Below are positions 1,753-64,000 of a stretch of 64,000 bases of DNA, piece by piece. The DNA comes from an uncultured Coriobacteriales bacterium. Its GTDB lineage: Bacteria; Actinomycetota; Coriobacteriia; Coriobacteriales; UMGS124. Within the stretch, counting starts at the first letter, position 1; the number at the start of each line of letters is the position of its first letter. Under the pieces are notes generated by a model that saw nothing but the letters and a program-made list of their open reading frames with translations, did not search any database and had not been told where the DNA came from. The stretch spans positions 345-64,344 of the forward strand of contig CABQHM010000010.1 of assembly GCA_902464015.1 (NCBI GenBank), in the 5' to 3' direction. Both the position numbers and the translations under genes were made by a program.

Positions 1753-4700
1753 TTATGCGGTCGGCGGGAGCGCTCCAGGGGTGCCGGTGGCACCGGGAAC
1801 CTCGGGCGTCGCAGGCGTGATGGACACCTCGGGGGCTTCGGCGGCCTCGCGAGCCAGACGTGCGGTGCGCTCCTGCAGGTAGGCGGCCGCATCGCCAGGA
1901 TCGTCGTCGATGTTCTCGTCGCCCAGGTCGACCTCCTTGGGTACCTTGCGGTACAAGATGTCGTACATGATGGGCACGATGTAGAGCGTCATGAACGTGG
2001 CGTAGGCCATGCCGCCCACCACGACAAGTGCCATACCGCGCTGCATGGTGCCACCCACATCCTGACTGAGCACGAGCGGCAGCATGGAGAGAATGGTGGT
2101 AAGCGCCGTCATGAGGATGGGGCGCATGCGCGTGACGCCGGTTGCCACAAGCGCATCGCGCTTGTCGAGCCCTCCGCGACGCAGCTGGTTGACGTAATCA
2201 ACAAACACGATACCGTTGTTCACGACCGTACCCATAAGCACGAGGAAGCCCATAAGCGACAGGATGTCAAGCTGCTGGCCGGCGAGCAGCAGCGCCAGAA
2301 AGCCACCCGTAAAGGCCAGGGGCACCGTGAGCAGCACAATAAAGGGCGACAGCAGACTCTGGAACTGGGCGACCATCACAAGATAGATGAGCACAAGCCC
2401 AAGCAGCGCCATGAGACCCATCTGCCTGAGCATCGTCGAAATGTTGTCGAGCTCGCCGCCAAACACAAGCGTGCATCCGTCGGGCACGTCGTAGTCATCG
2501 AGCTTCTCCTGCAGCTCGCGAGAGAGCAGGGCGTTGTTCTCGCCGTCCTTGACGTCAGCCGTGACCGTCATGGTGCGTTCGGAGTTCTCATGCGAGATGG
2601 ATGTCGAGGCCTTGCCCTGCGTCACCGTGGCGACATCGGACAGCTTGAACGTGATATCCCCGATGCTGATTTCGCGGTTGAGGAGGTTCGCCTTGGTGAC
2701 GGGGTCGGTCTCGTCAACAATCGTCACTGAGACGCTCGTGTTGTTGACCGTGATGTCGGCGGAGGTCGCCTCGGTCTTAATCTGCGACGAAAGCGCCTGG
2801 TAGAGCTGGGCTACCGTCACGCCCTTCTCCGCAAGCTTATTGCGGTCGATGTCAAGCTGGAGCTCGTTGGCCGCGTCCTCCATACCGTTGTCGATGTTCT
2901 CATACCCGTCGACCTCGCCCACGATGTCCATGACGTCCTGGCTCATGTCGAGCAGCGTCTGCTGGTCGGGGCCCTTGAGGGTGATGGACAGGCCCGACCC
3001 CATCATGGAGCTCATCTCGTCAGAAGAAGAGGCACTCGTCAGAACCTCGCAGTCGAGCTTGCGCGTGTTCTTTCCAATCTTGTCCACGATGTTCGAGACC
3101 TGCTGCTCGGTTTCCACCGTATCGTCAAGCTGGACATACAGCGTGAAATGGTTGAACGATTTGTCAGAGCCCGTGGACCCGGCGGCGGAGGACATGACCG
3201 ACAGCATGGCATTGCCGTCCATAGCGCCCACCACATCGACGCCGTCGACATCGAGAACCGCGTCGACCACCTGGTCGGCCGTGGCGCACGCCGTCTCCTT
3301 GTCGGTACCCTCAGGCATGGTCACCTGGGCAACGATGGTCTTGCTCGACATCGAAGGCATCATGTTGATACCCATGCTGAACACGCCTGCGACCGAGAAC
3401 GCCAGCAGGCCCACGGCAACCAACAGCGGCAGGGCCTTGTGGCGCAGGAAGAACTCAAGCGAATTGCCGTAAGCGACGCGCACATGCTCGAACCAGCCCG
3501 GCTTGGCGGGTTTCATGCGCTTGAACATGTACGTGGAAACCGTAGGAACGAGCGTTAGGGCCACAAGCAGCGATGCGGCAAGCACATAGGCGATAGTGAG
3601 CGCAAAAGGCACGAGGAGCTGGCTCACAAGGCCTGAAGTGAAAATGGCAGGCAGAAACACGCACACCGTGGTGAGCGTGGAGGCCACGACGGCGCCCGTA
3701 ATCTGCTTAGCTCCCTGCACGGCGGCACGCGCAGGAGGAATGCCGCGGCCACGCAGACGGTAGATGTTCTCAAGCACCACAATCGAGTTGTCCACGAGCA
3801 TGCCGATGGCCAATGCGATGCCGCCCAGCGTGAGGACGTTGACCGTGAGGCCCGAGAAGTACATGAAAATGAGCGCGCACAGCACCGAGAACGGGATGGA
3901 GAACGCCACGACGAGCGTGGGCTTCACCGACTTGAGGAACAGAGCAAGGACCACGACGGCCAGGCCCGCGCCCATAACCAGCGACTGGAGGATGTTGCTG
4001 ATGAACAGCTCGATGTAGGAGCCCTGGTCGTACAGAGCGTCGATCTCGAGGCTGGAGTTGTCCTTCTCGAGTTCGGCAATGCGCGTGGCGCAAGCCTTCG
4101 ACACGTCGGAGGTTGAGGCGGTCGAGCTCTTGTACACCGAAAGCAGAAGTCCCTTGCCGTCGTTGAGGCGCATGTAGGATTCGCCCGCATTGTCGATAAG
4201 CGTAACGTCGGCCACATCAGAAAGCTTGACCTCGCCCACGCCATCAATGTCGGCAAGAACAAGGTCGGAGAGCTCGTCTGCCGAGGTGAAGCCCTCGCCC
4301 ACGCGCACGAGCCACTGGTCGTCGTTGGCGTCGCTCACATAACCGGCAGGCATAGCGAAGTTCTGGGCAGAGATAACCTGGGCCAGCGTTGACTTGTCAA
4401 CCAGGGCGTCGACGTTAGCCTGGGCAAGCGCCTGGTCGCGCTGCTCGTTGAACTGCTCGCGAGAAGCCTTGAGCTGGGCCGCCTGCTCGTCGAGCTGGGC
4501 CTGGGCGGCATCGATCTGCGCGTAGGCGTCGGGGTTGACGTCGCGTCCGCCTGCCTGATCAAGCTGGTCACGCTGGGTGTTAAGGTCGGACTGGGCTTGC
4601 GCGAGCTGAGCGTCGCCATCGTCGAGCTGTTGCTTGGCATCGGCCAGAGAGTTGTCAACATGTGCTGCAAGCTTGTCGTTGACGGCGTCAATCTTCTTTT

Positions 4701-5265
4701 GGTTGAGGCGCACCTCCACCGACTGCTCCACCGCACCGGAAACCGAAACGTCGGCGACACCGTCGATACGCTCGAACTCGGGAACAATCTTGTCTTCGAC
4801 ATACGAGGTGAGCTCGTAGATGTCCTTGGAGTCATCGCGCACGCCCAAGTAGACCGTGGCCATCATGTCGGAGCTGATCTCCATGTAATTGGGGCTGCCC
4901 GCGTCGTCGGGCAGCTGCGAGGAGACCTCGTTCACCGCCGAGGAAACCTTGACGAGCGCCGAGTCCATGTCGGTGCCGTCCTCAAACTCCAGGAAGATCA
5001 TGGAGTAGTTGTCCGAGCTCTTTGAGGTAACGTTCGACACGCCGTTCACCGTGGCGAGGCTGCCCTCGAGCACATCCGTAATTTCGGACTCCACCTCCTC
5101 GGCGGTCGCACCGGGGTCGGTGGTGATAACCGCCAGATAGGGCAGGTCCATCTCGGGGTACAGGTCGGTCTTCATCTTGGAGAGGGACACGCCGCCCAAA
5201 ATAAGGGAGACGATAACGGCCACAACGATAATGTAGGGCCGCTTGACAGAGAATCGGCTGAGCAT
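1753..5265 (-). CDS. RND-family efflux transporter permease (AcrB/SwrC-like) with coiled-coil insertion
   Basis: About 1170 aa. The N-terminus MLSRFSVKRPYIIVVAVIVSLILGG and two 6-TM-like hydrophobic blocks separated by large loops are typical of ACR_tran proteins. Start chosen at the ATG at 5265; an alternative lies at 5286. Confidence 0.9.
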   Translation of the reverse strand: MLSRFSVKRPYIIVVAVIVSLILGGVSLSKMKTDLYPEMDLPYLAVITTDPGATAEEVESEITDVLEGSLATVNGVSNVTSKSSDNYSMIFLEFEDGTDMDSALVKVSSAVNEVSSQLPDDAGSPNYMEISSDMMATVYLGVRDDSKDIYELTSYVEDKIVPEFERIDGVADVSVSGAVEQSVEVRLNQKKIDAVNDKLAAHVDNSLADAKQQLDDGDAQLAQAQSDLNTQRDQLDQAGGRDVNPDAYAQIDAAQAQLDEQAAQLKASREQFNEQRDQALAQANVDALVDKSTLAQVISAQNFAMPAGYVSDANDDQWLVRVGEGFTSADELSDLVLADIDGVGEVKLSDVADVTLIDNAGESYMRLNDGKGLLLSVYKSSTASTSDVSKACATRIAELEKDNSSLEIDALYDQGSYIELFISNILQSLVMGAGLAVVVLALFLKSVKPTLVVAFSIPFSVLCALIFMYFSGLTVNVLTLGGIALAIGMLVDNSIVVLENIYRLRGRGIPPARAAVQGAKQITGAVVASTLTTVCVFLPAIFTSGLVSQLLVPFALTIAYVLAASLLVALTLVPTVSTYMFKRMKPAKPGWFEHVRVAYGNSLEFFLRHKALPLLVAVGLLAFSVAGVFSMGINMMPSMSSKTIVAQVTMPEGTDKETACATADQVVDAVLDVDGVDVVGAMDGNAMLSVMSSAAGSTGSDKSFNHFTLYVQLDDTVETEQQVSNIVDKIGKNTRKLDCEVLTSASSSDEMSSMMGSGLSITLKGPDQQTLLDMSQDVMDIVGEVDGYENIDNGMEDAANELQLDIDRNKLAEKGVTVAQLYQALSSQIKTEATSADITVNNTSVSVTIVDETDPVTKANLLNREISIGDITFKLSDVATVTQGKASTSISHENSERTMTVTADVKDGENNALLSRELQEKLDDYDVPDGCTLVFGGELDNISTMLRQMGLMALLGLVLIYLVMVAQFQSLLSPFIVLLTVPLAFTGGFLALLLAGQQLDILSLMGFLVLMGTVVNNGIVFVDYVNQLRRGGLDKRDALVATGVTRMRPILMTALTTILSMLPLVLSQDVGGTMQRGMALVVVGGMAYATFMTLYIVPIMYDILYRKVPKEVDLGDENIDDDPGDAAAYLQERTARLAREAAEAPEVSITPATPEVPGATGTPGALPPTA

Positions 5266-5631
5266 GGGCTGGGCTTGTCCTTCCAACGATGCATGTGAGA
5301 GACGCCATGCCGAAGCAGGCGCATTACGCTAAACTACCCCGTTGACACGCGCCTCTGTCGAACGCCTGGAAACATCCCCACAAATTCTCAACTTACTGGC
5401 GGGGCCTCGAAGCGAGCCCTCCTTCTGCAAACATCGCCAAGCATGCCCCCAAGACCCTACTACGCCAACCCATATCGCTGATAGGGACTGTTCTTCTTCT
5501 GAGTGGGCCGGGTTTTGGCAGCGTCTGGGCAGCGTGCAATTTACACGTGCAAGAAGTCGGGCACATCGTTGAAGGCCTTGCCATCGTCAACGGTGGACAA
5601 ACAAGCCGAGCCAGTGCCCGACGAGCATCCT

Positions 5632-6510
5632 TTAATCCTCCACGGCGAAGCTGTTCTTGCCCGTGGCTTTCGCATCGTACATGGCGCGGTCGGCACGCTG
5701 GATAAGAGTCTGCGCGTCCAAGTTCTCGACCTTCTCCTGGTAGTACGCACCGACACTGAGGGTAACCCTCATGCCCCCGTCGACATCGATAGGCGGAATC
5801 GACCGCAGTCGGCACTCAAGCTCTGCCTCGTTTACATTTCGCAATGCGGCAACAAACTCGTCGCCGCCATAGCGTGCCAGAATGTCCTCGGCCGTAGGTG
5901 CCAGGGCCTCACGCAAGGCCTCGGCCACCCGAGAAAGCACTTTGTCGCCCGCAAGATGCCCCAGGCGATCGTTGATATCCTTGAAGTCATCGATGTCGAG
6001 CATCACCACAGAGAGCGGTGTGCCATCGAGAACCGAACGGTTGATGAGGATGTTCAGACGCTCATCAAGATAACGCCTGTTGGAAAGCCCTGTGAGGTCG
6101 TCGGTGTACATCTTGCGATTGAACGTGGTGACGCGATCGACAAACTCGTTGTTGCCGAACGCCGAGAGCAGCACATTATCGTTCGAGGCCATGACGACCT
6201 CCAACACGTATCGCCTGCCGTCAACCTCCACGGGTTGGGCCACCACATGATAGATGTCGTTACCGATGAACTCGAATTTTGAGTACCGTTCGCGCTCCAT
6301 GAAGCACCGCGCCGACAGGCAGTTCTCACAGCGGGCGGTCTTATTCCACACGTGGAAGCATCTGTCAGGCTGAGCACGAAGCTCGCCACCTTCAATGGTG
6401 TATGCCATCATGCTGATGGGGTCAACCAAGCGCACCACGTCGAACAGCTGAGACATCTCAGCCGCAAGCTCCTGGAAATGAGCTTTTTTATACTTCGGCA
6501 CTGCTTCCAT
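5632..6510 (-). CDS. Diguanylate cyclase (GGDEF domain) with Cys-rich N-terminal sensor region
   Basis: RYGGDEFVAAL active-site motif. The N-terminal CFHVWNKTARCENCLSARC carries four Cys. Start taken at MEAVPKYKK, preceded by a GGGGGA RBS. Confidence 0.85.
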   Translation of the reverse strand: MEAVPKYKKAHFQELAAEMSQLFDVVRLVDPISMMAYTIEGGELRAQPDRCFHVWNKTARCENCLSARCFMERERYSKFEFIGNDIYHVVAQPVEVDGRRYVLEVVMASNDNVLLSAFGNNEFVDRVTTFNRKMYTDDLTGLSNRRYLDERLNILINRSVLDGTPLSVVMLDIDDFKDINDRLGHLAGDKVLSRVAEALREALAPTAEDILARYGGDEFVAALRNVNEAELECRLRSIPPIDVDGGMRVTLSVGAYYQEKVENLDAQTLIQRADRAMYDAKATGKNSFAVED

Positions 6511-52156: not shown

Positions 52157-53863
52157 TTGGAGAGCCACGTGTCATCAGAGGCGAGGGAGGGGCCGTCGTT
52201 GCAAGCGAATAACGAAGTGCGCCCGGCCGCCGCCTGCTCAATATCCCCGTTCTGCGTAGCAGGTCTTGCCATGGCCATCGTGCTGTACGGACTTGCGGTG
52301 TGGTCGCCTGGCACGATGTTTTCTTTCGCTCGCTCCGAGGTGTTTGTGCAGGCAGGCACCCTAGCCTCCGTCGCCAATGCGCTCGCCCTTATCGGCATGG
52401 GAATACGAGGCGCAATCGCCGCCTCGCGGCACGCCTCATCACACAAGCGTGCGGCAGCGTGTGCGTCCACCCTGTTCGCAGCCCTCCTCATAGCATGCGC
52501 ACTCACGTGGTGCGCATCGTTTGCCCTCGAAAACACGCAGGCAGATACCTGGTTCACTCTTGCGCTCCTCGTCGCCTCGTGTCTTTCGGGTATCTGTCTG
52601 GCAATTGCATTCGTCTTTTGGCTCGATTGCCTTAAAGGCCTGCCTTCACGACAGGTGCATGTCGCCCTCGTCTCGGCGGCGGCCCTTTCGGCCATCCTCA
52701 ACCTCCCCAGTGGCCTTGCCCCCGAACCCGTCCTGCGCGGACTCGTTGTCGCACTGTTTGCCGCACAGGCCGCCCTTGCGCTTGCCACTTCGCACGCACC
52801 CACCCCCTTCGCCCGCAAGAACAAAAACCATCACGCGAACGCCGCGCCCATGGCGGCCCCCAATCTTCATGCATGCCCTGCAAAAACCGCAGCCACCTCA
52901 ATCGAAGATGCCCCCACCCAGGAAGCCCCCGAGGTGCCCGCGTCCACACCTTCGGCGGCGACCCAACCCTCCCCCGACCTGCGCGGAGCCTTAAGCGACC
53001 TTGCCGCCGTACTGGCGGCCGCTGTCGTGCTGACCTTTGTCGCGCCGCTCGTAAACACCGTGCTCATGGTCGACGTCCTCGAGCTACCCGCGCGCTTCAT
53101 CATGAGCGCGACAATGAACCTCGCCACGGCCGCGTTGCTTGCTGTCGTGTGGCTCGTTTGCAAGCGCACCCCTTCAGTCTTCGCCGTGCTGCTGGGATTC
53201 ACCGCACTGCTCTTCGCCGCCGTCCTGGTCGCCTCCGCTCTAGGTCCAGGCGCGCACCTCGTGGCCCTGGCCTTGGGTTCTGCCGGCTTTTTCCTCGTAA
53301 TCTACCTCGTCATGGAAGCCGGAGTCACAACCGCGCAGGAACGGCACCTGGCCATCGAGGCCACATATGGCACCGTGGCCGGCATCGTGATGCTTGCCCG
53401 CGTGCTGGCCGACATGCTCTCGGCAAACCTGCTCAACGCCGACATCGCCGGCGAATCCAAAATGCTCGTAGCAACCTTCTTGCTCGTGTATCTGCTCACC
53501 TGTGCCGCCTTCGCCCTCTATAACGCCATCGCGCGGCGCAAGCGGCGGGTTGCCCCAGAAGGTGTCGTCGCACCCGAAGCGCAAACTCCCGTCACCGCCG
53601 ATACCTCGACAGTCCAACAAGGCCCCGACAGATCACCTGCCGAGCTCGTAAGTGACGCGCACAACCTTTCGCAACGCGAGCGAGAAGTGCTCGTGCTCAT
53701 CATGCGCGGCCGCAACGTGCCTGCCATCGCCGAAGAACTGGTCCTCTCGCGCAATACGGTGCAAACGCACGTGCGCCACATCTACGAGCAGCTCGGCGTT
53801 CACTCTCGCCAGGAGCTCGTTGCCTACGTCGAGGGCTTCTCCAGCCAATCGTCCGATGTATAG
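52157..53863 (+). CDS. Membrane-anchored LuxR/GerE-family regulator
   Basis: 568 aa, TTG start (uncertain). Polytopic. C-terminal LSQREREVLVLIMRGRNVPAIAEELVLSRNTVQTHVRHIYEQLGVHSRQEL. Confidence 0.8.
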   Translation: MESHVSSEAREGPSLQANNEVRPAAACSISPFCVAGLAMAIVLYGLAVWSPGTMFSFARSEVFVQAGTLASVANALALIGMGIRGAIAASRHASSHKRAAACASTLFAALLIACALTWCASFALENTQADTWFTLALLVASCLSGICLAIAFVFWLDCLKGLPSRQVHVALVSAAALSAILNLPSGLAPEPVLRGLVVALFAAQAALALATSHAPTPFARKNKNHHANAAPMAAPNLHACPAKTAATSIEDAPTQEAPEVPASTPSAATQPSPDLRGALSDLAAVLAAAVVLTFVAPLVNTVLMVDVLELPARFIMSATMNLATAALLAVVWLVCKRTPSVFAVLLGFTALLFAAVLVASALGPGAHLVALALGSAGFFLVIYLVMEAGVTTAQERHLAIEATYGTVAGIVMLARVLADMLSANLLNADIAGESKMLVATFLLVYLLTCAAFALYNAIARRKRRVAPEGVVAPEAQTPVTADTSTVQQGPDRSPAELVSDAHNLSQREREVLVLIMRGRNVPAIAEELVLSRNTVQTHVRHIYEQLGVHSRQELVAYVEGFSSQSSDV

Positions 53864-54040
53864 GCAATCTACCAGCGCTTTTAATAACCTCACTGAATTT
53901 CAGTGAAGCGGTTTGCCCCCATCCGCACCACTATGGACACCATGGGAAGGGCCCAGGGAGGGCCTTTCGCCGGCTGGGCATGCGCGACCGATACCGAGCA
54001 TACCCGGCTCGCATCCACCAAGGGAGAGGATGGGACACAT

Positions 54041-56320
54041 ATGAAGCAAGACATCTCGCGCAGGGGCTTCTTCAAGGCCGCCGGCACCGCCGCAGCCGCA
54101 GCCGGCGCACTCAGCGTCACCGGCGCAGCGCTGGCCGAGCCTGCCACGCCCGCCGCAGAGGCCACTGCGCCCGCAGAGGCTGCAGCCCAGGACAAGACCG
54201 CCGTCTATCAGACGCTCGCCCAGCTCAACCCCGACGACACGAGCGACTGGCGCTCCAACTCCATCGAGGACTTCACCAAGACGACGCTCTTCTCGCCCTG
54301 GCACCTCGGCAAGCTCGAGCTCAGCCACCGCATGGTGAAGTCGGCCGCCGGCTCGCTCTACCTGCCCGAAGTCACCGACGAGCGCATCATCGACGAGTAT
54401 GTCGAGTTCATCAAGGGCGGCTGCGACTTCGTGTGGGTCGAGGACTACGCGAGCCTCATGCCCCACTACCCGGCTTCCTACAAGGTGCGCGACGCGAGCA
54501 ACGCCATCCTCGACCAGGTGGCTGCCGCCGTTCACGAGGCGGGCGGCATGTGCGGCTATCAGCTGAGCCTCATGGGCGCCTCCTTCAGCGGCTTCGACGC
54601 CACCACGGCACCCGAGTTCGCCTGCGCCGAGGCCGACGACCTCACGCTCGACGAGGTCAAACAGGTGCAGCAGGACTTCATCGACGTGGCCGTCATGCTC
54701 AAGGATGCTGGTTTCGACGCCGTTGAGCTTAACGCCGCCGGCAACAACATCGGCCAGGCGTTCCTGTCGCGCAACCGCAACCACCGCGAGGACGAGTACG
54801 GCCCGCAGAGCTTTGAGAACCGCGCCCGCTTCGTGTGCGAGATCATCCAGGGCATCAAGAGCGCCTGCGGCGAGGACTTCCCCGTGCAGATCCTCATCAA
54901 CGGCATTGAGGCCAACGACGTGAGCCTGGGCCAGGACGAGGGCTTCACGACCGTCGAGGAGAACGTCGAGCTGTGCAAGCAGTTCGAGGCGGCCGGTGCC
55001 GACTCGCTGCACGTGCGCATCGGGCCTTACGGCTATCACCCCTGCGAGTTCGCCGGCGACCTGTACTTCTCCGGCTACGGCATCAACGGCAACACCCGCT
55101 ACGCCACGCAATTCGACTTCGACCGTCACTGGGAGGGCCTGCTCGATGGCTCGCACTCCGGCTGCGGCCTCATGCTCGATGTTGCCGCAAAGATCAAGGC
55201 AGCCGTGAGCATTCCCGTGGGATCCGTCACCTACATGGATCCGGCCCATGCCCCGGACTTCTTCGAGAAGGCCCTGCAGGACGGTAAGGTCGACTTCTAC
55301 AACATGACCCGCCCGCTCTACGCCGACCCCGACTACATCAACAAACTGCGCGAAGGCAAGGTCGACGAGATCCGCCCGTGCAACCGTTGCCTGCACTGCC
55401 ACTTCGACTTCGACGAGCAGGGCAACTTCTACGAGCACTGCCGCGTCAACGCCACGCGCATGCGCGCCTTCACGCCCGCCATGCCCGATGGCCCCGCCCT
55501 GCCCGCGCTCGACAGCGACCCCAAGAACGTCATGGTCGTGGGCGGCGGCGCGGCCGGCATGGAGGCCGCACGTGTCGCGGCCCTGCGCGGGCACAGCGTC
55601 ACGCTCTACGAGAAGCAGGGCTACCTGGGCGGCAAGCTGCCCTTCGCCGCTGCGGTCAAGGGCCAGCACGAGAACATCGCCGATCTCAACTCCTACCTGC
55701 AGCGCCAGCAGGAGGTTTGCGGCGTAACCGTCGTGACCGGCCAGGAGGTCGACGCCGACTTCGTGCGCGCCCAGGCCCCCGATGTGCTGATTGAAGCAAC
55801 CGGCGGCGTTGTCGTGCCCACCGGCCTTGCCGCAAGCGGCTCGACCAACGTGGTGCCCATCGAGGATATCCTTACTGCTGAGATTGGCAACGAGGTCACC
55901 ATCGTGGGCTACGGTGCCCCGGCCGTGGACGCCGCGTTCTACCTCATCGCCCAGGGCAAGCACGTCACCATCGTCATGGACCAGCCCTCCGCCGTGCTTG
56001 ACAAGGGTCAGTCGGCCCATGTCAAGGAGGTCGTACTCCCGATGCTCTACGTCAAGGGCACTCGTGTGTGGGCCAACGCGACCGTGACCAACGTGGGCGA
56101 GGGTGAGATCACCATCAACGGCGACACTGGCTGCGACATCACCATCGCCTGCGACACCGTGATTGAGGCCTGCGAGCTTGCGGCCAACACCACGCTCGCC
56201 GACGCGCTGGGCGCCGAGATGACGGTCGTCACCGTGGGCGACGCCCTTGTCGACCCCGCCAAGCCCCACAACATCGCCGAGGCCATCGCCACCGGCAACC
56301 TGGCCGCCCGCGCAATCTAA
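54041..56320 (+). CDS. Tat-signal Old-Yellow-Enzyme / 2,4-dienoyl-CoA-reductase-like flavoenzyme (FMN TIM barrel plus 4Fe-4S plus FAD/NAD-type domain)
   Basis: MKQDISRRGFFKAAGTAAAAAGALSVTGAALA. OYE-like LSHRMVKSAAGS. Cys cluster CNRCLHCHFDFDEQGNFYEHC. Rossmann VMVVGGGAAGMEAARVAALRGHSVTLYEK. GGGAGAGGA RBS. Confidence 0.9.
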   Translation: MKQDISRRGFFKAAGTAAAAAGALSVTGAALAEPATPAAEATAPAEAAAQDKTAVYQTLAQLNPDDTSDWRSNSIEDFTKTTLFSPWHLGKLELSHRMVKSAAGSLYLPEVTDERIIDEYVEFIKGGCDFVWVEDYASLMPHYPASYKVRDASNAILDQVAAAVHEAGGMCGYQLSLMGASFSGFDATTAPEFACAEADDLTLDEVKQVQQDFIDVAVMLKDAGFDAVELNAAGNNIGQAFLSRNRNHREDEYGPQSFENRARFVCEIIQGIKSACGEDFPVQILINGIEANDVSLGQDEGFTTVEENVELCKQFEAAGADSLHVRIGPYGYHPCEFAGDLYFSGYGINGNTRYATQFDFDRHWEGLLDGSHSGCGLMLDVAAKIKAAVSIPVGSVTYMDPAHAPDFFEKALQDGKVDFYNMTRPLYADPDYINKLREGKVDEIRPCNRCLHCHFDFDEQGNFYEHCRVNATRMRAFTPAMPDGPALPALDSDPKNVMVVGGGAAGMEAARVAALRGHSVTLYEKQGYLGGKLPFAAAVKGQHENIADLNSYLQRQQEVCGVTVVTGQEVDADFVRAQAPDVLIEATGGVVVPTGLAASGSTNVVPIEDILTAEIGNEVTIVGYGAPAVDAAFYLIAQGKHVTIVMDQPSAVLDKGQSAHVKEVVLPMLYVKGTRVWANATVTNVGEGEITINGDTGCDITIACDTVIEACELAANTTLADALGAEMTVVTVGDALVDPAKPHNIAEAIATGNLAARAI

Positions 56321-56420: not shown

Positions 56421-56511
56421 AATCTTGCAAACCTGTCCTGCAAGATTTCTTGAATCTTGCAAAGCAGGACTGCAAGATTTCGAGAATCTTGCCAAATAGC
56501 TTTGCAAGATT
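56421..56511. repeat. Three tandem 27-bp hairpin/palindrome units at an exact 32-bp period
   Basis: aatcttgca-N9-tgcaagatt at 56421-56447 and 56453-56479, with a third, imperfect unit aatcttgcc-N9-tgcaagatt at 56485-56511. They lie in a convergent intergenic region. Confidence 0.8.
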
Positions 56512-56656
56512 TGCGTCACGCTCAGGAGCAGAGCGTCGCTTTTCTCTCATAAAACAATCGTGGAATCCCGTCGCCCCCAGCAACGAAAAACGGCCGGCCC
56601 CAGCGTCATGCTGAAGCCGGCTGTTGGACAAACCAATTTCCGCTATCTAGCAGGGC

Positions 56657-58333
56657 TTACTCGCCCGTTGCGGCAATGCGACCGGCGCGGCGGGCAAACG
56701 TCGCCGAGCGACCGGCAGCAAGGCCGGGAATCTGGTCGGGATAGGTGTGAGCGAAGAAGCAACCCGAGTCATTGCCGCAGACGTACAGGCCCTCGATGGG
56801 CTCGCCGTCGGCGTTGAGGGCGTGCATGGTCTCGTCAATCTTGATGCCGTCCATGGTGCAGAGCAGGCGGCCTGCGTTACGCACACCAAAGAACGGGGCT
56901 GTGTCCACGGGCGACAGACGGAACGCCTCCTTGCCGAAGTCGGGATCCTCGCCGGCGGCAGCGTTGGCATTGTTGCGCTCCACGGTGGCCGCAAACGTGT
57001 CGGCCGGGATGCCGAGCTTCTCGGCGAGCTCTTCCACCGTGTCAGCCTGCTGGATGAAGCCGGCCTGCTTCATACCCTCGAGCATGCCCATACAGGCATC
57101 CATATCGATGGCGGAAACAGGCGCGCCGTTCACGAACGGGAACATGCGCGAGCAGCCCTGGGTCTTGAACTGCATGATGTAGTCCTGGAAGTTGGAGTCC
57201 CAGATGGTGGCATAGGTGTGGCCGGGCTGATCGATGGACGCGTGGAGCACGAAGTCGTACGGTGCGCTCTCGTTGCAGAAGCGCTCGCCCTTGAGGTTCA
57301 CCTTAAGCCAAGGCTGAGAGGCCATCCATACCATGCCGTTAACCATCTCGCCGCCGGCAAGACCATCGGGAGGCAACGGACCGCGATCGAACAACATGGA
57401 AGTATGAACATCGTCGAATGCGGCTCCCACCCAGAGGCAAGCTTTGATGCCATCGCCCTCCGAACCAGCAATACCGGAAATGTATGAACACACCAGTTTA
57501 GACTCAGGCTGAAGCGCAGAAAGCATTCCATCGTTGAGAGCATAGCCGCCGGTGCAAATGCACACGCCCTTAACAGCGTTGATGCGCACGTAGCCGTCGG
57601 TGCCCTGGGCAATGACGCCCGTCACGCGGCCGGACTCGTCCTGCTCAAGCTTGACCATGGGACAACTGTAGCGAAACTCAACGCCATTGTCGGCAGCATA
57701 TGATTCAAGAACTTCTCCTGCATCAGCATCCTGAGTGGTGTGGCCGTCCTTCACAGCAGCATGACCAGTTGCCCAGTGGCGGTACTCCATCTGGTCGGCA
57801 TACTCGTCGAGGTCATGGTCGGAGCAGTACACAAACTCGCGGCCGGCCTTCTCGCACAGGTCGCCGTACCACTCAATCGTCTCGGCCGACTCGTCTGCCC
57901 ATAGGCGGAGGAGCTTGGGATTGACGTTGGAGGCGGCGTACATGGTCATCTCGCGGCAGATGTCGAGCGCCTTGATGTCGGTGTTGTCAGCAAGCTGGTA
58001 CTTGGAGCCGATGGCGCCAAGGGTACCGCGGATACCCGGGCCCACCTCGTTCTTCTCGATGACGAGAACCTTCGCGCCGTTCTCGGCGGCCGAGCAGGCA
58101 GCGAAGAGGCCCGAAGTACCCGCGCCAACAACAAGAACGTCGCAGTCGAGCGTCTCGGCGATGTCGCTTTCAGCGACATCGGGCGCGGCGCCGAGCCATG
58201 CGGGAGCGTCGGCGACCTCGGCCGCAGGGGCCTGGTCGGCAAGCGCAAGAGCAGGCGCGCAGGCAAGGGCGCCAGCAGCGGAGGCCGTGGCGATGAAGCC
58301 GCGGCGAGAGACGCTCGAAGACGAAACAGTCAT
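56657..58333 (-). CDS. Tat-signal FAD-dependent reductase (FAD_binding_2 family)
   Basis: MTVSSSSVSRRGFIATASAAGALACAPALALA. VLVVGAGTSGLFAACSAAENGAKV. C-terminal GLYVCGNDSG. Confidence 0.9.
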   Translation of the reverse strand: MTVSSSSVSRRGFIATASAAGALACAPALALADQAPAAEVADAPAWLGAAPDVAESDIAETLDCDVLVVGAGTSGLFAACSAAENGAKVLVIEKNEVGPGIRGTLGAIGSKYQLADNTDIKALDICREMTMYAASNVNPKLLRLWADESAETIEWYGDLCEKAGREFVYCSDHDLDEYADQMEYRHWATGHAAVKDGHTTQDADAGEVLESYAADNGVEFRYSCPMVKLEQDESGRVTGVIAQGTDGYVRINAVKGVCICTGGYALNDGMLSALQPESKLVCSYISGIAGSEGDGIKACLWVGAAFDDVHTSMLFDRGPLPPDGLAGGEMVNGMVWMASQPWLKVNLKGERFCNESAPYDFVLHASIDQPGHTYATIWDSNFQDYIMQFKTQGCSRMFPFVNGAPVSAIDMDACMGMLEGMKQAGFIQQADTVEELAEKLGIPADTFAATVERNNANAAAGEDPDFGKEAFRLSPVDTAPFFGVRNAGRLLCTMDGIKIDETMHALNADGEPIEGLYVCGNDSGCFFAHTYPDQIPGLAAGRSATFARRAGRIAATGE

Positions 58334-58512
58334 GGTTGCTTCCCTTCTCATGGGTTCCGGGCGGCAAACGACGAAGCACATATGAGACGCAACGTCGCAC
58401 AGCCACCCGTTTGACATCTCGAACCATAGCGCCGACGTTTTCGTCACACCTCACCAACAGTTCACGAAAAACCAGGTATTTGCCGTCGTAACCCTTCTCA
58501 CCCCCTCTTCAT

Positions 58513-58605: not shown

Positions 58606-60047
58606 ATGAGCAATCGCAGCGAGGCACAAGGAAAGCCCGCTCCCTCTCCTGCTGGCAACGCCTTGCCAAAGGAGCCTGCCACAGCATTTGCCGCATTCGG
58701 TGCCTACGTGCTGAGCAACTGGCTACTCACGAGCAAGGTCTTCCCCATCGGCACCGATGTAGCCCCGCTGTGTCGCGACATCGCGACGCTCGTGGAAGCA
58801 GCGGGCTTTCTCGTGATCGCGCTTGTCGCCTCGAGGGTGCCTCGCCTTCTGGGAGCACGCCCGTTCCTTATCGCGCCCCTTGCGCTCTCGTTAGTCGGCG
58901 GCATCAGCCTCTGGGCCTTCGTCCCCACCTCCCCACTCGCCGCAACGTTGGCTCTCTGTTTGCTTTTGCTCTGCGCCGTCTTCGTTATGCTTTCTGCCGG
59001 CTGTTGTTTGGCACGCTTAACTCGTCCGCAAATGGCAAAATGCGTCTTGCTGGGCCTCTTCGCCTCATATCTTCTGCGCTTCCCACTCAGCGTCCTGAGT
59101 CCACAAGCAGCGCTCGTCCTGTTCATCACCCTGCAAATCCTTGCAGTATTCGTGGGCCGCACCGACATGGGCAAGGCACTTGAAATCATCCAATCGGGGC
59201 AGGCGCCCGACGAGCTCACGCTCACAAACCCCTTCTCGTTCCTGCCCCGCTCACACAGGCTCTTCGTATGCCTGGCCCTTTTCCAGACAGCCTACGGAGC
59301 AGCACTTTCCTTCGGCGAGGTTAACAATGCCCCGCTCGCCACATGGGCCGGCATCGTCCCTTTGCTGTTCTTCTTGGCAATTTGGGCGATAAACAGCCGA
59401 CCGCTCCTACTTGACTCGTGCTTCAATCTGGCGCTTCTACTTCTAATGGCGGGCTTTTTATTCGCCCCCATTTCCCAGCAGGCCGTACCTTCGCTGACCT
59501 CAAATCTAATCGAAGCGGGAAAGACTTGTTTTTGGCTCGTCTTTTGGCCGGCGCTGGCGGCGCTTTCCGCCCGCAACCGCGCAGGCACGCTGCCCCTTTT
59601 CGCCTGGAGCGGCTTTCTGCTCTGCGTGGGTGTCACGGGAGGCGCCGAACTGGGCCGGTTGTGCTACGCGGCCATGGCGGGCAGCCTTATTGCGAGCACT
59701 GCCGTGACGGGAGCCGTCGTGCTCTGCCTTGCGGCGTTTGCCCTGTTCGGCATGAGGGGCTCAGCTACGACACGACGGTAGAGGCGCTCACGGCAAGCCC
59801 CGAGGTCGTCGAGCATGAGGCCACCCCCGACCTCGACACCACCGTTGCCCGCCTTATCGACACGACCGGCCTCACTGCGCGCGAGGCCGAGATCTTCGCC
59901 CTGCTCGCCCAGGGCCGCAACGGTGCCTATATCCAACGTCAGCTGGGCGTGAGCTACAACACCGTGAAGACCCACGTGGCCCACATCTACACCAAGCTCG
60001 GCGTCCACTCCCACCAGGAACTGATCGACCTGGTAGAGGTGGCATAG
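58606..60047 (+). pseudogene. Membrane-anchored LuxR/GerE regulator interrupted by a 1-nt frameshift
   Basis: The membrane domain (frame 1) stops at 59781. The HTH (LTAREAEIFALLAQGRNGAYIQRQLGVSYNTVKTHVAHIYTKLGVHSHQEL) continues in another frame to 60047. Adding one G to the G4 run at 59756-59759 restores ...FGMRGLSYDTTVEALTA... Confidence 0.7.
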
Positions 60048-60551: not shown

Positions 60552-61760
60552 CTACTCAGCGAGAGCCTTGCCGAGCCTATAGCCAGCATTAATGCAGTTC
60601 ATGCCCAGATTGTGGCCGCAAACGGCAAAGTTGTAGCAGTTGCCGTACGAGTCGCCAACCATGATGCCGATGTTGTAGAGGCCCTCGATGGGATTGTCGT
60701 TGGCGTCGCAAACCTGCCATTTCTCGTTGGTGTTCAAGCCACCGGTGACACACAGGAAGTTGGCGGGGCTCATGCTGAGCTTGCAGCCGTAGAAGGGGCC
60801 TTCCTTGATGGGTGCCATGAGAGAGGCGTCCTTGTGGAAGTCGGTGTCGCAGCCGGCCTCGCACAGCTCGTTGTAATGGTCGATAGAGGCGAGCGCCGCC
60901 TCAGCGTCGAGGTCGTCGAGCTGGGCGATGACCTCCTCGAGCATGTCTCCCTTGACAAAGGTGCCGCTCTCGACGTTGGAGTCCCACTGAGCCAGGTAAG
61001 CCTCGCACGACAGGGGGTCCTTGCCCTCGCCGGCGACGATGGTGGCGCCGAAGGTCTCCCACTGGGGGAACCAGTGGGCATAGGCGGTGTCCCAGATGCC
61101 GTAGCGGGTCATGTCGGGCTGCATCATCATGGCATATGTTCCATACGAGAAGATGACGTCCTCGTTAGAGTAGCGCTGGCCGTTCTTGTTGAGCAGCAGA
61201 CCGGAGAAGTCGGCGATGGACTGACGGTAAGGCATGGGTCCAACAGCATCGATCATGGGGGCGTTGGGGATGCTCTTCTGCCACGCGGCGCCGACCCAAA
61301 GGCCCATCTTCTGGCCGTCGCCGCCACCAAGGCCACCGAACTGGAAGGCCGCGTCATAGTCTATCTCGTTGTACTGAAGCAGCGGGGCGACCCAGTCGCA
61401 GTACTTGGCCATCATGTCCTGGTTGGCAGAAAAGTCGCCCGTAGCCATGACGACGGCCTTGCGGCCGACGTACTTGACGTAGTTGCCATCCGGATCGGTG
61501 GCAACTACCGCGCTCACACGGCCTGTATTGCCGTCGTCGCGGACAAGGTAACGGGCGATGGTTTTGTAATGGATGGTGCCTCCCTGCTCGAGAATCTTCG
61601 ACTCCAGGGCGTACATGACGTAGTTCTCGCCCAAACGAGCCCCCGATTCGACGCCGTCGCAAGTCTCAACCCAGTTGTGAGAGCCGGGCTCGGCGGTGAA
61701 GGTGCCGTCAGTGTCGGTGTAACCGATCTCCATGGTTGTGGTGTAGCCCTGGCCTTCCAT
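60552..61760 (-). pseudogene. 5'-truncated FAD_binding_2 flavoreductase (lacks the Tat signal and FAD dinucleotide fold)
   Basis: The 402-aa ORF aligns with the C-terminal two thirds of the paralogs (VVMATGDFSANQDMMAKY, GQKMGLWVGAAW, DTDFHKD, GPFYG, GLYNIGIMVGD). No RR signal or GxGxxG is present. Similarity ends near 61770-61790. Confidence 0.7.
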
Positions 61761-62034: not shown

Positions 62035-63489
62035 TCACCCCTGCACGAGGACGTCGAGCTCCTCCTTGCTGTGGACGCCGAGTTTCTTGTATATATGCTG
62101 CATGTGGGCTTTGACCGTGCCGGGCGCGATGCCCAGCTTGTTACCCAGGGCGCGGGGCGTGTCGCCCCGCGCAACAAGCAGCAGTATCTCCCTCTGACGC
62201 CCCGACAGGCCGTGCTCGCGGGCGAGCGTGTCCACGGTCAGCTCGAGCCGCGCGTCCTCCGCCAGACTCGTCCCCGCACGCGTGAGGACGATGCGCCAGC
62301 TCGAGTTGAGCGTGGGCTCCGACACGATGATGAACGTCGCGAACAGGATGCAGATGATGACCGCGCCCACGACGACGAGCGACGGCAGGGCGTTGAAGAG
62401 GAGCGTCCCGGCCCCCAGGAACGCGATGTGGACAACGTTGAGCAGGCCGAACAGCCATGCGGCGCTGATGCCGTAGCGCCGCGACAGGTTGCACAGTACC
62501 ACCGAGATGTATAGGGACACCGACGTGTAGCTCGCCCGCACGAAGACGGTGACGAGGCCCTCGTTGCCGTCCCGGACGAGGAGCAGGGCAAGGAAGCCGG
62601 CGATTGCCGCGGGCAGGATGGTGCGGTAGACCAGGGCGAAGTCGAAGAACCTCGATGCGAACAGGATGGACGCGCAGACGACAAGCGCCGGGAGGACCAT
62701 GCCCAGGCGCATGAAGAGGTCGTCCTGGTAATGGAGCAGCCACGTGCCGCACCCGTAGGCGAACGCGTACAGGGCCACCAGGCTCATCGGCTTCCAGGGG
62801 AACGATGCCGCGCCGTCCCCCGCGCGCGTCACAAGACCGAGGGACGCGCAGCGCCTTTGCGCGGCGTCGAGCATGGCCATGCCGAGCAGCGGGAAAACGA
62901 GCGTCGCCGCGACCAGGTAACCGCCGGAATATCCGGAAAGCGCCGCGATCGCCACCTCGCGGGCGATCCAGGAGCTTGCACAGCAAAACGCCACCTCGAC
63001 CGGGTTGAGGGCGGCACAGACCTCCCACCAGCATAGGATTGCAAGCGAAGAACCGGCGCCCGCCAAGGCAAGGCCGAGCAGGCGCCCGAGCTGGGCTGTG
63101 TCAGACGGCAAAATCGGCATGTCTCCCGGCCCGAGCGGGGCGGCGGGCAGCAGTCCGCCGAAGGCGGCGAGTGCGTTGCCTGCATACATGAGGGCGGCGG
63201 CGCCTGCGAGAACGCCGCGGCGGGCCCCGAGCGGCCCGGCCCCCCGCGCGAGCGCGACGACAAGGAGGAACACGGGCACGGAGCCCAGGTCGACGTAGAG
63301 CGTGACCCGCCCGAAGGCCGTGGAGGGATCGCTTGACGAGGCGGCCTGCACCATGGCCTGCAGCGCCGCGACCCATGCCCGCAAGACGCCCGGGCCCAGA
63401 AAAGCAAGCGACACCGCGGGCACCCGCTCCGCCAAAAGTCCCCTCAACGTCCCAAACACGGATGTCCCCCTCCCTCGTCTGCGTCCCAT
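62035..63489 (-). CDS. Membrane-anchored LuxR/GerE-family regulator
   Basis: 484 aa, polytopic. C-terminal LSGRQREILLLVARGDTPRALGNKLGIAPGTVKAHMQHIYKKLGVHSKEEL. Confidence 0.8.
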   Translation of the reverse strand: MGRRRGRGTSVFGTLRGLLAERVPAVSLAFLGPGVLRAWVAALQAMVQAASSSDPSTAFGRVTLYVDLGSVPVFLLVVALARGAGPLGARRGVLAGAAALMYAGNALAAFGGLLPAAPLGPGDMPILPSDTAQLGRLLGLALAGAGSSLAILCWWEVCAALNPVEVAFCCASSWIAREVAIAALSGYSGGYLVAATLVFPLLGMAMLDAAQRRCASLGLVTRAGDGAASFPWKPMSLVALYAFAYGCGTWLLHYQDDLFMRLGMVLPALVVCASILFASRFFDFALVYRTILPAAIAGFLALLLVRDGNEGLVTVFVRASYTSVSLYISVVLCNLSRRYGISAAWLFGLLNVVHIAFLGAGTLLFNALPSLVVVGAVIICILFATFIIVSEPTLNSSWRIVLTRAGTSLAEDARLELTVDTLAREHGLSGRQREILLLVARGDTPRALGNKLGIAPGTVKAHMQHIYKKLGVHSKEELDVLVQG

Positions 63490-63672: not shown

Positions 63673-64000
63673 ATGGCTGAACTTACGCGTCGCAGTTTCC
63701 TGGCAGGCAGTGGCATGGCAGTCGCCGGGGCAGTGGCCGCAACCGGCATGGCCGCCGCGGGCGGGGCCGACCGCGCCTATGCCGACGAGCAAGCCGCGGA
63801 GGGCCGCGTGTACCAGGTCATCACCGACGAGCTCAACCCGCAGGACTACAACTACCGCCAGAACTCGGGAGACCTGTCCCACGTGCTGTCGCCGTGGAAG
63901 CTGGGGAACATGGAGTTCTCCAACCGCATCGTGAAGTCGGCGGCCGGGTCCAACTACGAGAACGGCGGCTGGGACAAGTTCGTGGAGTACTACCGCCGCC
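63673..64000 (+). CDS. Tat-signal OYE / 2,4-dienoyl-CoA-reductase-like flavoenzyme (5' part, runs off the window)
   Basis: MAELTRRSFLAGSGMAVAGAVAATGMAAAGGA. LSPWKLGNMEFSNRIVKSAAGS parallels FSPWHLGKLELSHRMVKSAAGS of 54041-56320. GGGAGAAGG RBS. Confidence 0.8.
   Translation, partial: MAELTRRSFLAGSGMAVAGAVAATGMAAAGGADRAYADEQAAEGRVYQVITDELNPQDYNYRQNSGDLSHVLSPWKLGNMEFSNRIVKSAAGSNYENGGWDKFVEYYRR

Follow-up and report, generated by a model that had tools for sequence, protein, structure and literature searches.

Enzymes of the FadH, 2-enoate reductase and 2-naphthoyl-CoA reductase (NCR) type are treated as cytoplasmic in reviews, and a 2024 review and a 2025 preprint describe their superfamily as NAD(P)H-linked and largely uncharacterised. 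However, an NADPH site is missing from NCR, whose donor is not NAD(P)H; the enzyme is thought to take single electrons from a ferredoxin-like donor at its surface FAD, from which they pass to the [4Fe-4S] cluster and then to the buried FMN (PMC6502838). The trimethylamine and histamine dehydrogenases have ADP at the FAD position and electron-transferring flavoprotein as their redox partner (PMC6502838). An electron route that does not involve NAD(P)H therefore has precedent in this superfamily, and export is the unusual part of the case described here. We analysed a 64,000-nucleotide stretch of DNA (the window) from an uncultured Coriobacteriales bacterium (assembly GCA_902464015.1, contig CABQHM010000010.1, positions 345 to 64,344), in which the gene at 54041-56320 encodes an iron-sulfur (Fe-S) flavoenzyme of this superfamily with a conserved signal for twin-arginine translocation (Tat), directly behind the gene of a membrane LuxR-type regulator. 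The first-pass annotation of this gene had taken the characterised members of the family to be cytoplasmic and NAD(P)H-driven; the use of NAD(P)H holds for FadH but, given NCR and the two dehydrogenase families, not as a general rule.

The genomic module around this gene also has described counterparts. Genomes of Eggerthellaceae encode tens to more than 100 flavin (PF00890) and molybdopterin (PF00384) reductases with signal peptides, and in Eggerthella lenta 64 of those reductases adjoin transmembrane regulators (Little et al., bioRxiv 10.1101/2022.12.26.521950). In the same species, LuxR-type proteins with 10-12 transmembrane helices (DadR, CadR and HcdR) activate neighbouring reductase genes upon exposure to the substrate of the enzyme (Dong et al. 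2022, PMC9734109). The census of this reductase arsenal counted PF00890 and PF00384 enzymes only (bioRxiv 10.1101/2022.12.26.521950), and Old Yellow Enzyme (OYE)-type enzymes are mentioned neither there nor in PMC9734109. A preprint on resveratrol reductase sets RER apart, as its own class, from both OYE and enoate reductases. In a non-exhaustive literature search (gut reductase arsenals, an Fe-S enzyme review, resveratrol, steroid and IsmB preprints, and flavinylation papers), no source described OYE-type or Fe-S flavoenzymes that are exported. Both the superfamily and the genomic module are known already, and the novelty lies in the topology, the loss of the NAD(P)H site and the rebuilt active site.

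Results

Domain architecture and structure model

The predicted protein has all elements of the FadH / 2-enoate reductase / NCR type, namely the FMN barrel, the four-Cys motif and the FAD-type beta-alpha-beta unit, and each part that the first-pass annotation had read from the letters was recovered. The barrel is of the OYE type (Oxidored_FMN, PF00724, residues 83-286, 4.7e-24 in Pfam), with the active-site motif ELNAAGNN at residues 229-236. The CxxCxxC...C cluster motif is CNRCLHCHFDFDEQGNFYEHC (residues 447-467), and its four Cys are invariant in 58 aligned homologues. The Rossmann-type domain (Pyr_redox_2, residues 496-727, 1.5e-13 in Pfam) contains GGGAAG at residues 501-506, and the product also has a second alpha/beta domain. 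The four Cys and an FAD-type GxGxxG were present in every representative compared.

An AlphaFold (AF2) model was built on the 58-sequence alignment and reached a mean predicted local distance difference test (pLDDT) of 86.6 and a predicted template modelling score (pTM) of 0.86, with residues 1-48 disordered (pLDDT < 50). When this model was compared with the PDB by Foldseek, the first two ranks were NCR (6qkg, template modelling (TM) score 0.80 on the target) and FadH (1ps9, 0.79). Further matches were 6-hydroxypseudooxynicotine amine oxidase (6l6j, 0.74), the histamine dehydrogenases (about 0.72-0.73) and trimethylamine dehydrogenase (about 0.66-0.67). A sequence search agreed with Foldseek on the order of NCR (2e-52), FadH and the two dehydrogenase families. 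The reductase also matched PF00890, as a mere 41-residue hit at the level of the Rossmann fold, and its catalytic domain is PF00724; the enzyme is not a member of the PF00890 respiratory flavin reductases, though it may work like them.

A conserved Tat signal and a coherent group of predicted exported enzymes

The N-terminus is a predicted Tat signal peptide (residues 1-32, MKQDISRRGFFKAAGTAAAAAGALSVTGAALA), after which come EP and an Ala/Pro/Glu-rich linker; in homologues a comparable low-complexity linker follows the signal or the lipobox. Within ISRRGFFK...ALA/E we found a (S/T)RRxFLK-like motif, a moderately hydrophobic h-region and an AxA cleavage site. The RR signal noted at first reading is therefore real at the level of the motif, and it is shared near the N-terminus by 115 of 121 homologues (53-97% identity), 60 of which also have a lipobox cysteine. 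In the six homologues that lack RR, the start seems to be miscalled or the N-terminus poorly called.

The signal also follows the phylogeny. An exhaustive search of 1.84 billion cluster representatives gave a sharp step, at which about 25 end-to-end matches of 750-850 aa with signals were followed by hundreds of signal-less proteins of 630-700 aa whose sequence starts with the barrel. The Tat-bearing proteins also grouped together in a tree of 123 representatives, where the query fell in well-supported subtrees in which 9/9, 12/13 and 18/20 proteins were Tat-bearing. The Tat label required 4 changes on this tree versus about 20.5 in shuffles, and the apparent exceptions include an RK variant and a truncated protein. 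Judged by these comparisons, the predicted exported Fe-S flavoenzymes are one coherent group. TatC is encoded in the genome (1.1e-52; 3.41 Mb in 130 contigs searched), and the Tat pathway typically carries cofactor-loaded Fe-S proteins. With the signal conserved to this extent, we consider it very likely that the enzyme is exported from the cytoplasm.

We also checked whether the true start might lie downstream, which would leave the RR segment untranslated. A scan of the reductase reading frame found no in-frame ATG, GTG or TTG between residue 1 and residue 98, and a start at residue 98 would delete the family-invariant N63, F84, G90 and R97; the RR segment therefore cannot be bypassed. Upstream, an 805-aa open reading frame from GTG 53903 was considered and rejected, as this GTG lies inside a conserved palindrome (see below) and has no ribosome-binding site, and the frame is unconserved in relatives. 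The stretch 53903-54040 is noncoding in the related loci: in L008 it has lost 1 bp, and in L012 and L013 it has diverged and retains just two short blocks and no reading frame.

Probable loss of the NAD(P)H site and a rebuilt active site

For the alignment of the second dinucleotide motif, E. coli FadH (translated from NC_000913.3) was used as the reference. FadH has GCGGIG at this position, and the corresponding sequence of classical enoate reductases is GGGxVGCET, with VTIVE after it. In the family of the query, the motif is degenerate and reads GxNAQA in 101 of the 121 close homologues. When 21 Tat-bearing and 100 non-Tat representatives were compared, a strict second GxGxxG occurred in 1/21 of the former versus 53/100 of the latter (Fisher p = 2e-5). 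The alignments with FadH and with the family contained no conserved acidic or basic residue after strand 2. The basic residues of FadH at this place (QRK), which on general Rossmann-fold grounds we take to be contacts of the NADPH 2'-phosphate, are unmatched in the query.

The query itself reads GYGAPA in the second motif. We rejected this as a surviving NAD(P)H motif, because G625 is found in just 10/121 homologues and is lost even in 84%-identical relatives, which have GFCAPA, GHCAPA or GFAAPA; there is therefore no sign of selection on G625 as a nucleotide-binding glycine. The former NAD(P)H loop (55895-55918, residues 619-626, with the family column Q627-A628-V-D630) has lost its glycines but is still among the best-conserved stretches of the family, with G623, A628 and D630 invariant and Q627 present in 114/121 homologues, and this conservation argues for some new role.

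The active site of the barrel differs as well. The OYE catalytic motif E-I-H-G-A-H-G-Y-L is replaced by E-(I/L)-N-A-A-G-N-N, and both the proton-donor Tyr (FadH Tyr166) and the His pair are gone. The pattern G[YWF][LIVFM] in the aligned active-site segment, taken here as the signature of the proton-donor Tyr, was found in 1/21 Tat representatives versus 47/100 others. A barrel insertion of at least 40 residues was present in all 21 Tat representatives and in 3/100 non-Tat ones, and the N-terminal extension before the barrel is conserved in the exported group. The features that define the NAD(P)H-dependent subgroup (FadH, enoate reductases, BaiCD/BaiH and DZNR), namely a second GxGxxG with a charged residue, the His/Tyr motif and a predicted cytoplasmic location, are thus missing from the query. 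From these alignments it appears highly likely that the exported group has lost the NAD(P)H site and that the enzyme does not use NAD(P)H.

Fused FMN_bind domains in the exported group

In several proteins of the exported group an FMN_bind domain is fused to the reductase, either between signal and barrel (P0044, P0046 and P0134) or at the C-terminus (P0136). FMN_bind domains are substrates of the flavin transferase ApbE and mediate extracytosolic electron transfer (bioRxiv 10.1101/2021.01.07.425746); two ApbE genes were found in the genome. The first-pass annotation had reasoned that an exported nucleotide domain could not see NAD(P)H, and that electrons would have to arrive by another route or the domain be repurposed. 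The conserved Tat signal, the degenerate second motif, the replaced catalytic motif and these FMN_bind fusions all point in that direction.

The regulator and the candidate promoter region

The LuxR gene had been recognised at first reading as lying directly upstream of the reductase on the same strand, and the analysis agreed. Its product has a C-terminal GerE domain (1.6e-16 at residues 503-557 in Pfam) and about 12 hydrophobic segments by hydropathy, and with the adjacent reductase gene these features assign it, by sequence, to the described 10-12-transmembrane LuxR family of Coriobacteriia. The orthologous pairing of regulator and enzyme was found in six loci (L007-L010, L012 and L013), and the regulators of L007-L010 are 86-96% identical to that of the query.

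A palindrome between the two genes occurs as a single exact copy in the 3.4-Mb genome. Both of its arms are kept in L012 and L013, in which spacer and flanks have diverged. It is a likely LuxR operator of the reductase promoter, to which the regulator would bind. Downstream of it, CCAC(T/C)ATGG within the block 53926-53937 is conserved in 7/7 aligned loci. Considering its spacing, this block is a possible -10 region, with the palindrome overlapping the -35 region as an activator site; a scan for sigma-70 consensus promoters made no call at the block.

Two of these loci are of separate interest. In L012 and L013 the enzyme is 80-82% identical to the query and the regulator just 40-47%; the regulator has thus changed much faster than its enzyme, with no change in the palindrome arms. 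L012 (CAVEWV010000034.1) is labelled Acutalibacteraceae and has the 82%-identical orthologue at 3643-5922, with the same LuxR and palindrome. The presence of this orthologue in a Clostridia-labelled bin means either that a Coriobacteriia contig was mis-binned or that the locus was transferred recently.

Behind the reductase stop, tandem hairpins with CTTGCAA/TTGCAAG stems and a period of about 32 bp occupy 56421-56511, and a terminator scan placed a terminator-like site with a T-run at 56518-56536. The array and the terminator-like stem are together likely the 3' end of the transcript. The coordinates of all features are given in Table 1.

Table 1 Features of the reductase locus, in positions of the window
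Feature	Position	Strand	Details and evidence
Membrane LuxR-type regulator, about 12 transmembrane segments and C-terminal GerE helix-turn-helix	52157..53863	+	Exact start codon uncertain
Perfect palindrome TCACTGA-ATT-TCAGTGA	53890..53906	.	Between LuxR stop (53863) and reductase ATG
Conserved block CACCACTATGGA (CCACNATGG)	53926..53937	+	About 34 bp downstream of palindrome centre; candidate -10 region
Shine-Dalgarno-like GGGAGAGG	54022..54029	+	11 nt ahead of ATG; kept in L007-L010
Coding sequence, predicted exported Fe-S flavoenzyme	54041..56320	+	759 aa; ATG start
Predicted Tat signal peptide, residues 1-32	54041..54136	+	SRRGFFK, Ala/Gly-rich h-region, ALA/E cleavage site
Flexible Ala/Pro/Glu-rich linker, residues 33-55	54137..54205	+	Sequence; disordered in model
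N-terminal extension (LNPxD...TLFSPW) and OYE-type FMN TIM barrel	54206..55360	+	Pfam PF00724; alignment with FadH and family
Group-specific 44-aa barrel insertion, residues 329-372	55025..55156	+	Invariant H333, Y342, D359, H363
[4Fe-4S] motif C447-x2-C450-x2-C453-x13-C467	55379..55441	+	Aligns with FadH cluster motif
FAD/ADP-binding beta-alpha-beta, VMVVGGGAAGMEAA...VTLYEK..GG	55529..55633	+	Aligns with FadH FAD motif
Second dinucleotide-motif region (former NAD(P)H loop)	55895..55981	+	Alignments with FadH and family
Three tandem hairpins, then terminator-like stem and T-run	56421..56536	+	Convergent intergenic region; hairpins seen in sequence

Genomic neighbourhood, paralogues and distribution

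Eight FAD_binding_2 (fumarate-reductase-like) genes, of which two include FMN_bind domains, lie in the window together with six multi-transmembrane LuxR genes, and by its gene content the window is an island of modules that each pair a membrane LuxR with a predicted exported reductase. The genome has five PF00724 copies, all homologous to the query. A clear RR signal is present in three of them, and the classical cytoplasmic type is not represented. A GerE-type helix-turn-helix is encoded within 4 kb of 4/5 of these reductase paralogues.

One further paralogue lies in the window itself. It is 48% identical, has the signal MAELTRRSFLAG, and occupies window positions 63679-64000, running on past the window (genome C10:64023-66275); its start at 63679 is divergent from a LuxR gene at 62035-63489(-). 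Another paralogue (C37:15091-17265, 50% identical) has no RR, its N-terminus being ...KQAFRGVGFAGAAVGAAGLGIAPCIAPAYA followed by QDE. An in-frame stop lies immediately ahead of this N-terminus, and the signal may have decayed or be of the Sec type.

In the membrane LuxR at 58606-60047, the transmembrane part (58606-59781) and the GerE domain (59418-60047) are in different frames, and the gene appears to be split by a frameshift; it adjoins a Tat-signal FAD_binding_2 reductase at 56657-58447(-). The FAD_binding_2 reading frame at 60552-61760(-) covers profile positions 141-405 only and is probably a 5'-truncated reductase remnant. Genome-wide, about 131 tblastn matches to the GerE helix-turn-helix of the upstream LuxR suggest a very large LuxR repertoire; for comparison, 83 transmembrane LuxRs were reported for E. 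lenta DSM 2243.

Near-identical loci (97-99% identity) were found in metagenome-assembled genomes of uncultured human-gut Coriobacteriales/Coriobacteriaceae. The 90%-identity cluster that holds a 97%-identical orthologue has 465 member sequences and is frequent in data from the human gut. A member at E <= 1e-100 was present in 14 of 151 sampled Coriobacteriia species genomes (9/79 genera). Carriers usually have 1-2 copies, and the five copies found here are the highest number in the sample. Relatives also occur in Clostridia (Lachnospiraceae, Oscillospiraceae and Eubacteriales). Homologues are further carried by the cultivable bacteria Arabiibacter massiliensis, where a GerE regulator gene lies immediately ahead of the reductase gene, Raoultibacter massiliensis and Denitrobacterium detoxificans.

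Discussion

We propose that the gene encodes an extracytoplasmic Fe-S flavin reductase that is induced by the LuxR regulator, fed with electrons from the membrane and independent of NAD(P)H. As a whole this reading seems reasonably probable to us; its export, FAD occupancy, donor, direction and substrate are what we infer from the features described above. First, the protein would fold in the cytoplasm, where FMN, the [4Fe-4S] cluster and probably FAD would be loaded. Second, the Tat system would carry the folded enzyme out, and the enzyme would there reduce a small molecule that needs no import. Third, electrons would pass from a membrane-linked one-electron donor, such as a protein or a flavin relay, to the surface FAD, then to the [4Fe-4S] cluster, the barrel FMN and finally the substrate. 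The adjacent 12-transmembrane LuxR would sense this substrate and induce the gene, probably via the palindrome at 53890-53906. Since the enzyme belongs to the predicted exported group and its gene lies in an island of LuxR/reductase modules, a respiratory-type or electron-sink reductase is the most likely role, and we regard a reductive, respiration-type function as somewhat probable.

Several observations weigh against this proposal. The FAD-type motif fits FAD or ADP alike, and trimethylamine dehydrogenase binds ADP there. The former NAD(P)H loop has stayed strongly conserved and so has some function. The 759-aa query copy has no lipobox by which it could be held at the surface of a monoderm cell. 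It combines an AxA site with the same flexible linker that follows the lipid anchor of its relatives; this copy may either be kept at the membrane by a signal that is left uncleaved or pass into the wall. We found no published experiments on export, cofactors or activity of any member. Beside the gene, its four paralogues and three distant homologues, there was no dedicated electron-transfer partner, but only regulators and reductases. The donor is therefore probably a shared component. Finally, ordinary ene-reduction chemistry is not assured, since the query lacks both the proton-donor Tyr and the His pair. Of the extracytoplasmic ene-reductase suggested by the first-pass annotation, the unusual export is supported by the conserved Tat signal, and to classical C=C ene-reduction we would give an even chance at best.

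The lack of a nearby partner can also be explained by an exported reductase that conserves no energy and instead detoxifies compounds or dumps electrons, being fed by diffusible shuttles such as free flavins. The query copy has no lipid anchor, and a search of the genome for NapC/NirT-type cytochromes gave a sub-threshold hit only and none above the Pfam cut-off, both of which fit this explanation. However, half of the homologues are predicted membrane-held lipoproteins and some have an FMN_bind relay, and both features suggest a defined membrane electron path; we therefore consider uncoupled reduction rather unlikely.

The direction of electron flow is not fixed by sequence, and an exported dehydrogenase could work oxidatively, in the manner of the trimethylamine and histamine dehydrogenases, by passing electrons from FMN-dependent oxidation through the [4Fe-4S] cluster to a membrane acceptor and so serving as a donor for respiration. 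These dehydrogenases are full-length structural matches of the query (TM score 0.65-0.73) and are superfamily members that do not use NAD(P)H. On the other side, the query is closer to the reductases NCR and FadH, its gene lies among many exported reductases of a strict anaerobe, and the characterised LuxR-paired enzymes of related bacteria are reductive, which makes an oxidative enzyme decidedly unlikely. A conventional enoate or dienoyl-CoA reductase that works in the cytoplasm with NAD(P)H and has a nonfunctional or untranslated RR segment would agree with the database name 'NADH-dependent reductase (Old Yellow Enzyme family)' and with the fit of GYGAPA to GxGxxA, but it is very improbable in view of the missing alternative start, the family-wide RR motifs and lipoboxes, the unconserved G625, the lack of a conserved charged residue after strand 2 and the absence of the catalytic motif of cytoplasmic enzymes.

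The membrane-fed extracytoplasmic reductase that we favour would probably be an unrecognised third type of substrate-induced extracellular reductase in these bacteria. If so, it would provide a new catalytic scaffold for the extracytoplasmic and possibly respiratory metabolism of compounds that come from diet, drugs or the host, and it would explain why such enzymes may look inactive in standard NAD(P)H assays. It would also sharpen the question of how monoderm gut bacteria connect their single-gene exported reductases to the membrane. Particularly, the paired LuxR and the candidate operator offer a direct, reporter-based route to the substrate. A bolder proposal, which we hold to be unlikely in its full form, is that the exported Fe-S flavoenzymes are a third, uncounted class of respiratory reductases in gut anaerobes beside PF00890 and PF00384. 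In this proposal, the rebuilt active site, with the 44-aa insertion and its invariant His, Tyr and Asp but neither the catalytic Tyr nor the His pair, would carry out NCR-like low-potential hydride chemistry outside the cell, for example the reduction or dearomatisation of dietary polyphenols or host metabolites, using single electrons that pass from the membrane to the surface FAD.

The trimethylamine and histamine dehydrogenases have the same three-domain fold and exchange electrons with a protein partner rather than NAD(P)H, but they are oxidative, cytoplasmic or soluble enzymes with covalent 6-S-cysteinyl FMN and with ADP for FAD, and their match to the query is at the level of the fold. 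The Cys that holds the covalent FMN of trimethylamine dehydrogenase would presumably align with an Ala in the query. The PF00890 reductases of Eggerthellaceae (UrdA, Cgr2 and the cinnamate reductases) share the module, in that they have a signal peptide, a single gene beside a transmembrane LuxR, many paralogues and an optional FMN_bind domain, whereas their catalytic fold is unrelated (PF00890 versus PF00724 with Fe-S here). The regulator resembles DadR, CadR and HcdR in its C-terminal GerE domain, its roughly 12 N-terminal transmembrane helices and its position beside a reductase gene; here the putative operator is a palindrome.

Among the reductases, FadH (1ps9) and the clostridial 2-enoate reductases have the three-domain architecture, the Cys motif and the FAD motif in common with the query. 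FadH differs in being cytoplasmic and NADPH-using and in having GCGGIG with basic residues after strand 2, which are absent from the query, as are EIHGAHGYL, GGGxVGCET and VTIVE of the classical enoate reductases. NCR (6qkg), a type III aryl-CoA reductase, is nearest by both sequence and fold, and the second glycine motif is degenerate in both proteins. However, NCR is cytoplasmic, acts on a coenzyme A (CoA) thioester and keeps the active-site Tyr (VGYL), and its identity to the query is just about 26%. Located outside the cell, the query would not be able to meet CoA esters. Relative to NCR, it adds a Tat signal, an N-terminal extension and a 44-aa barrel insertion, and it has NAAGNN in place of the Tyr motif.

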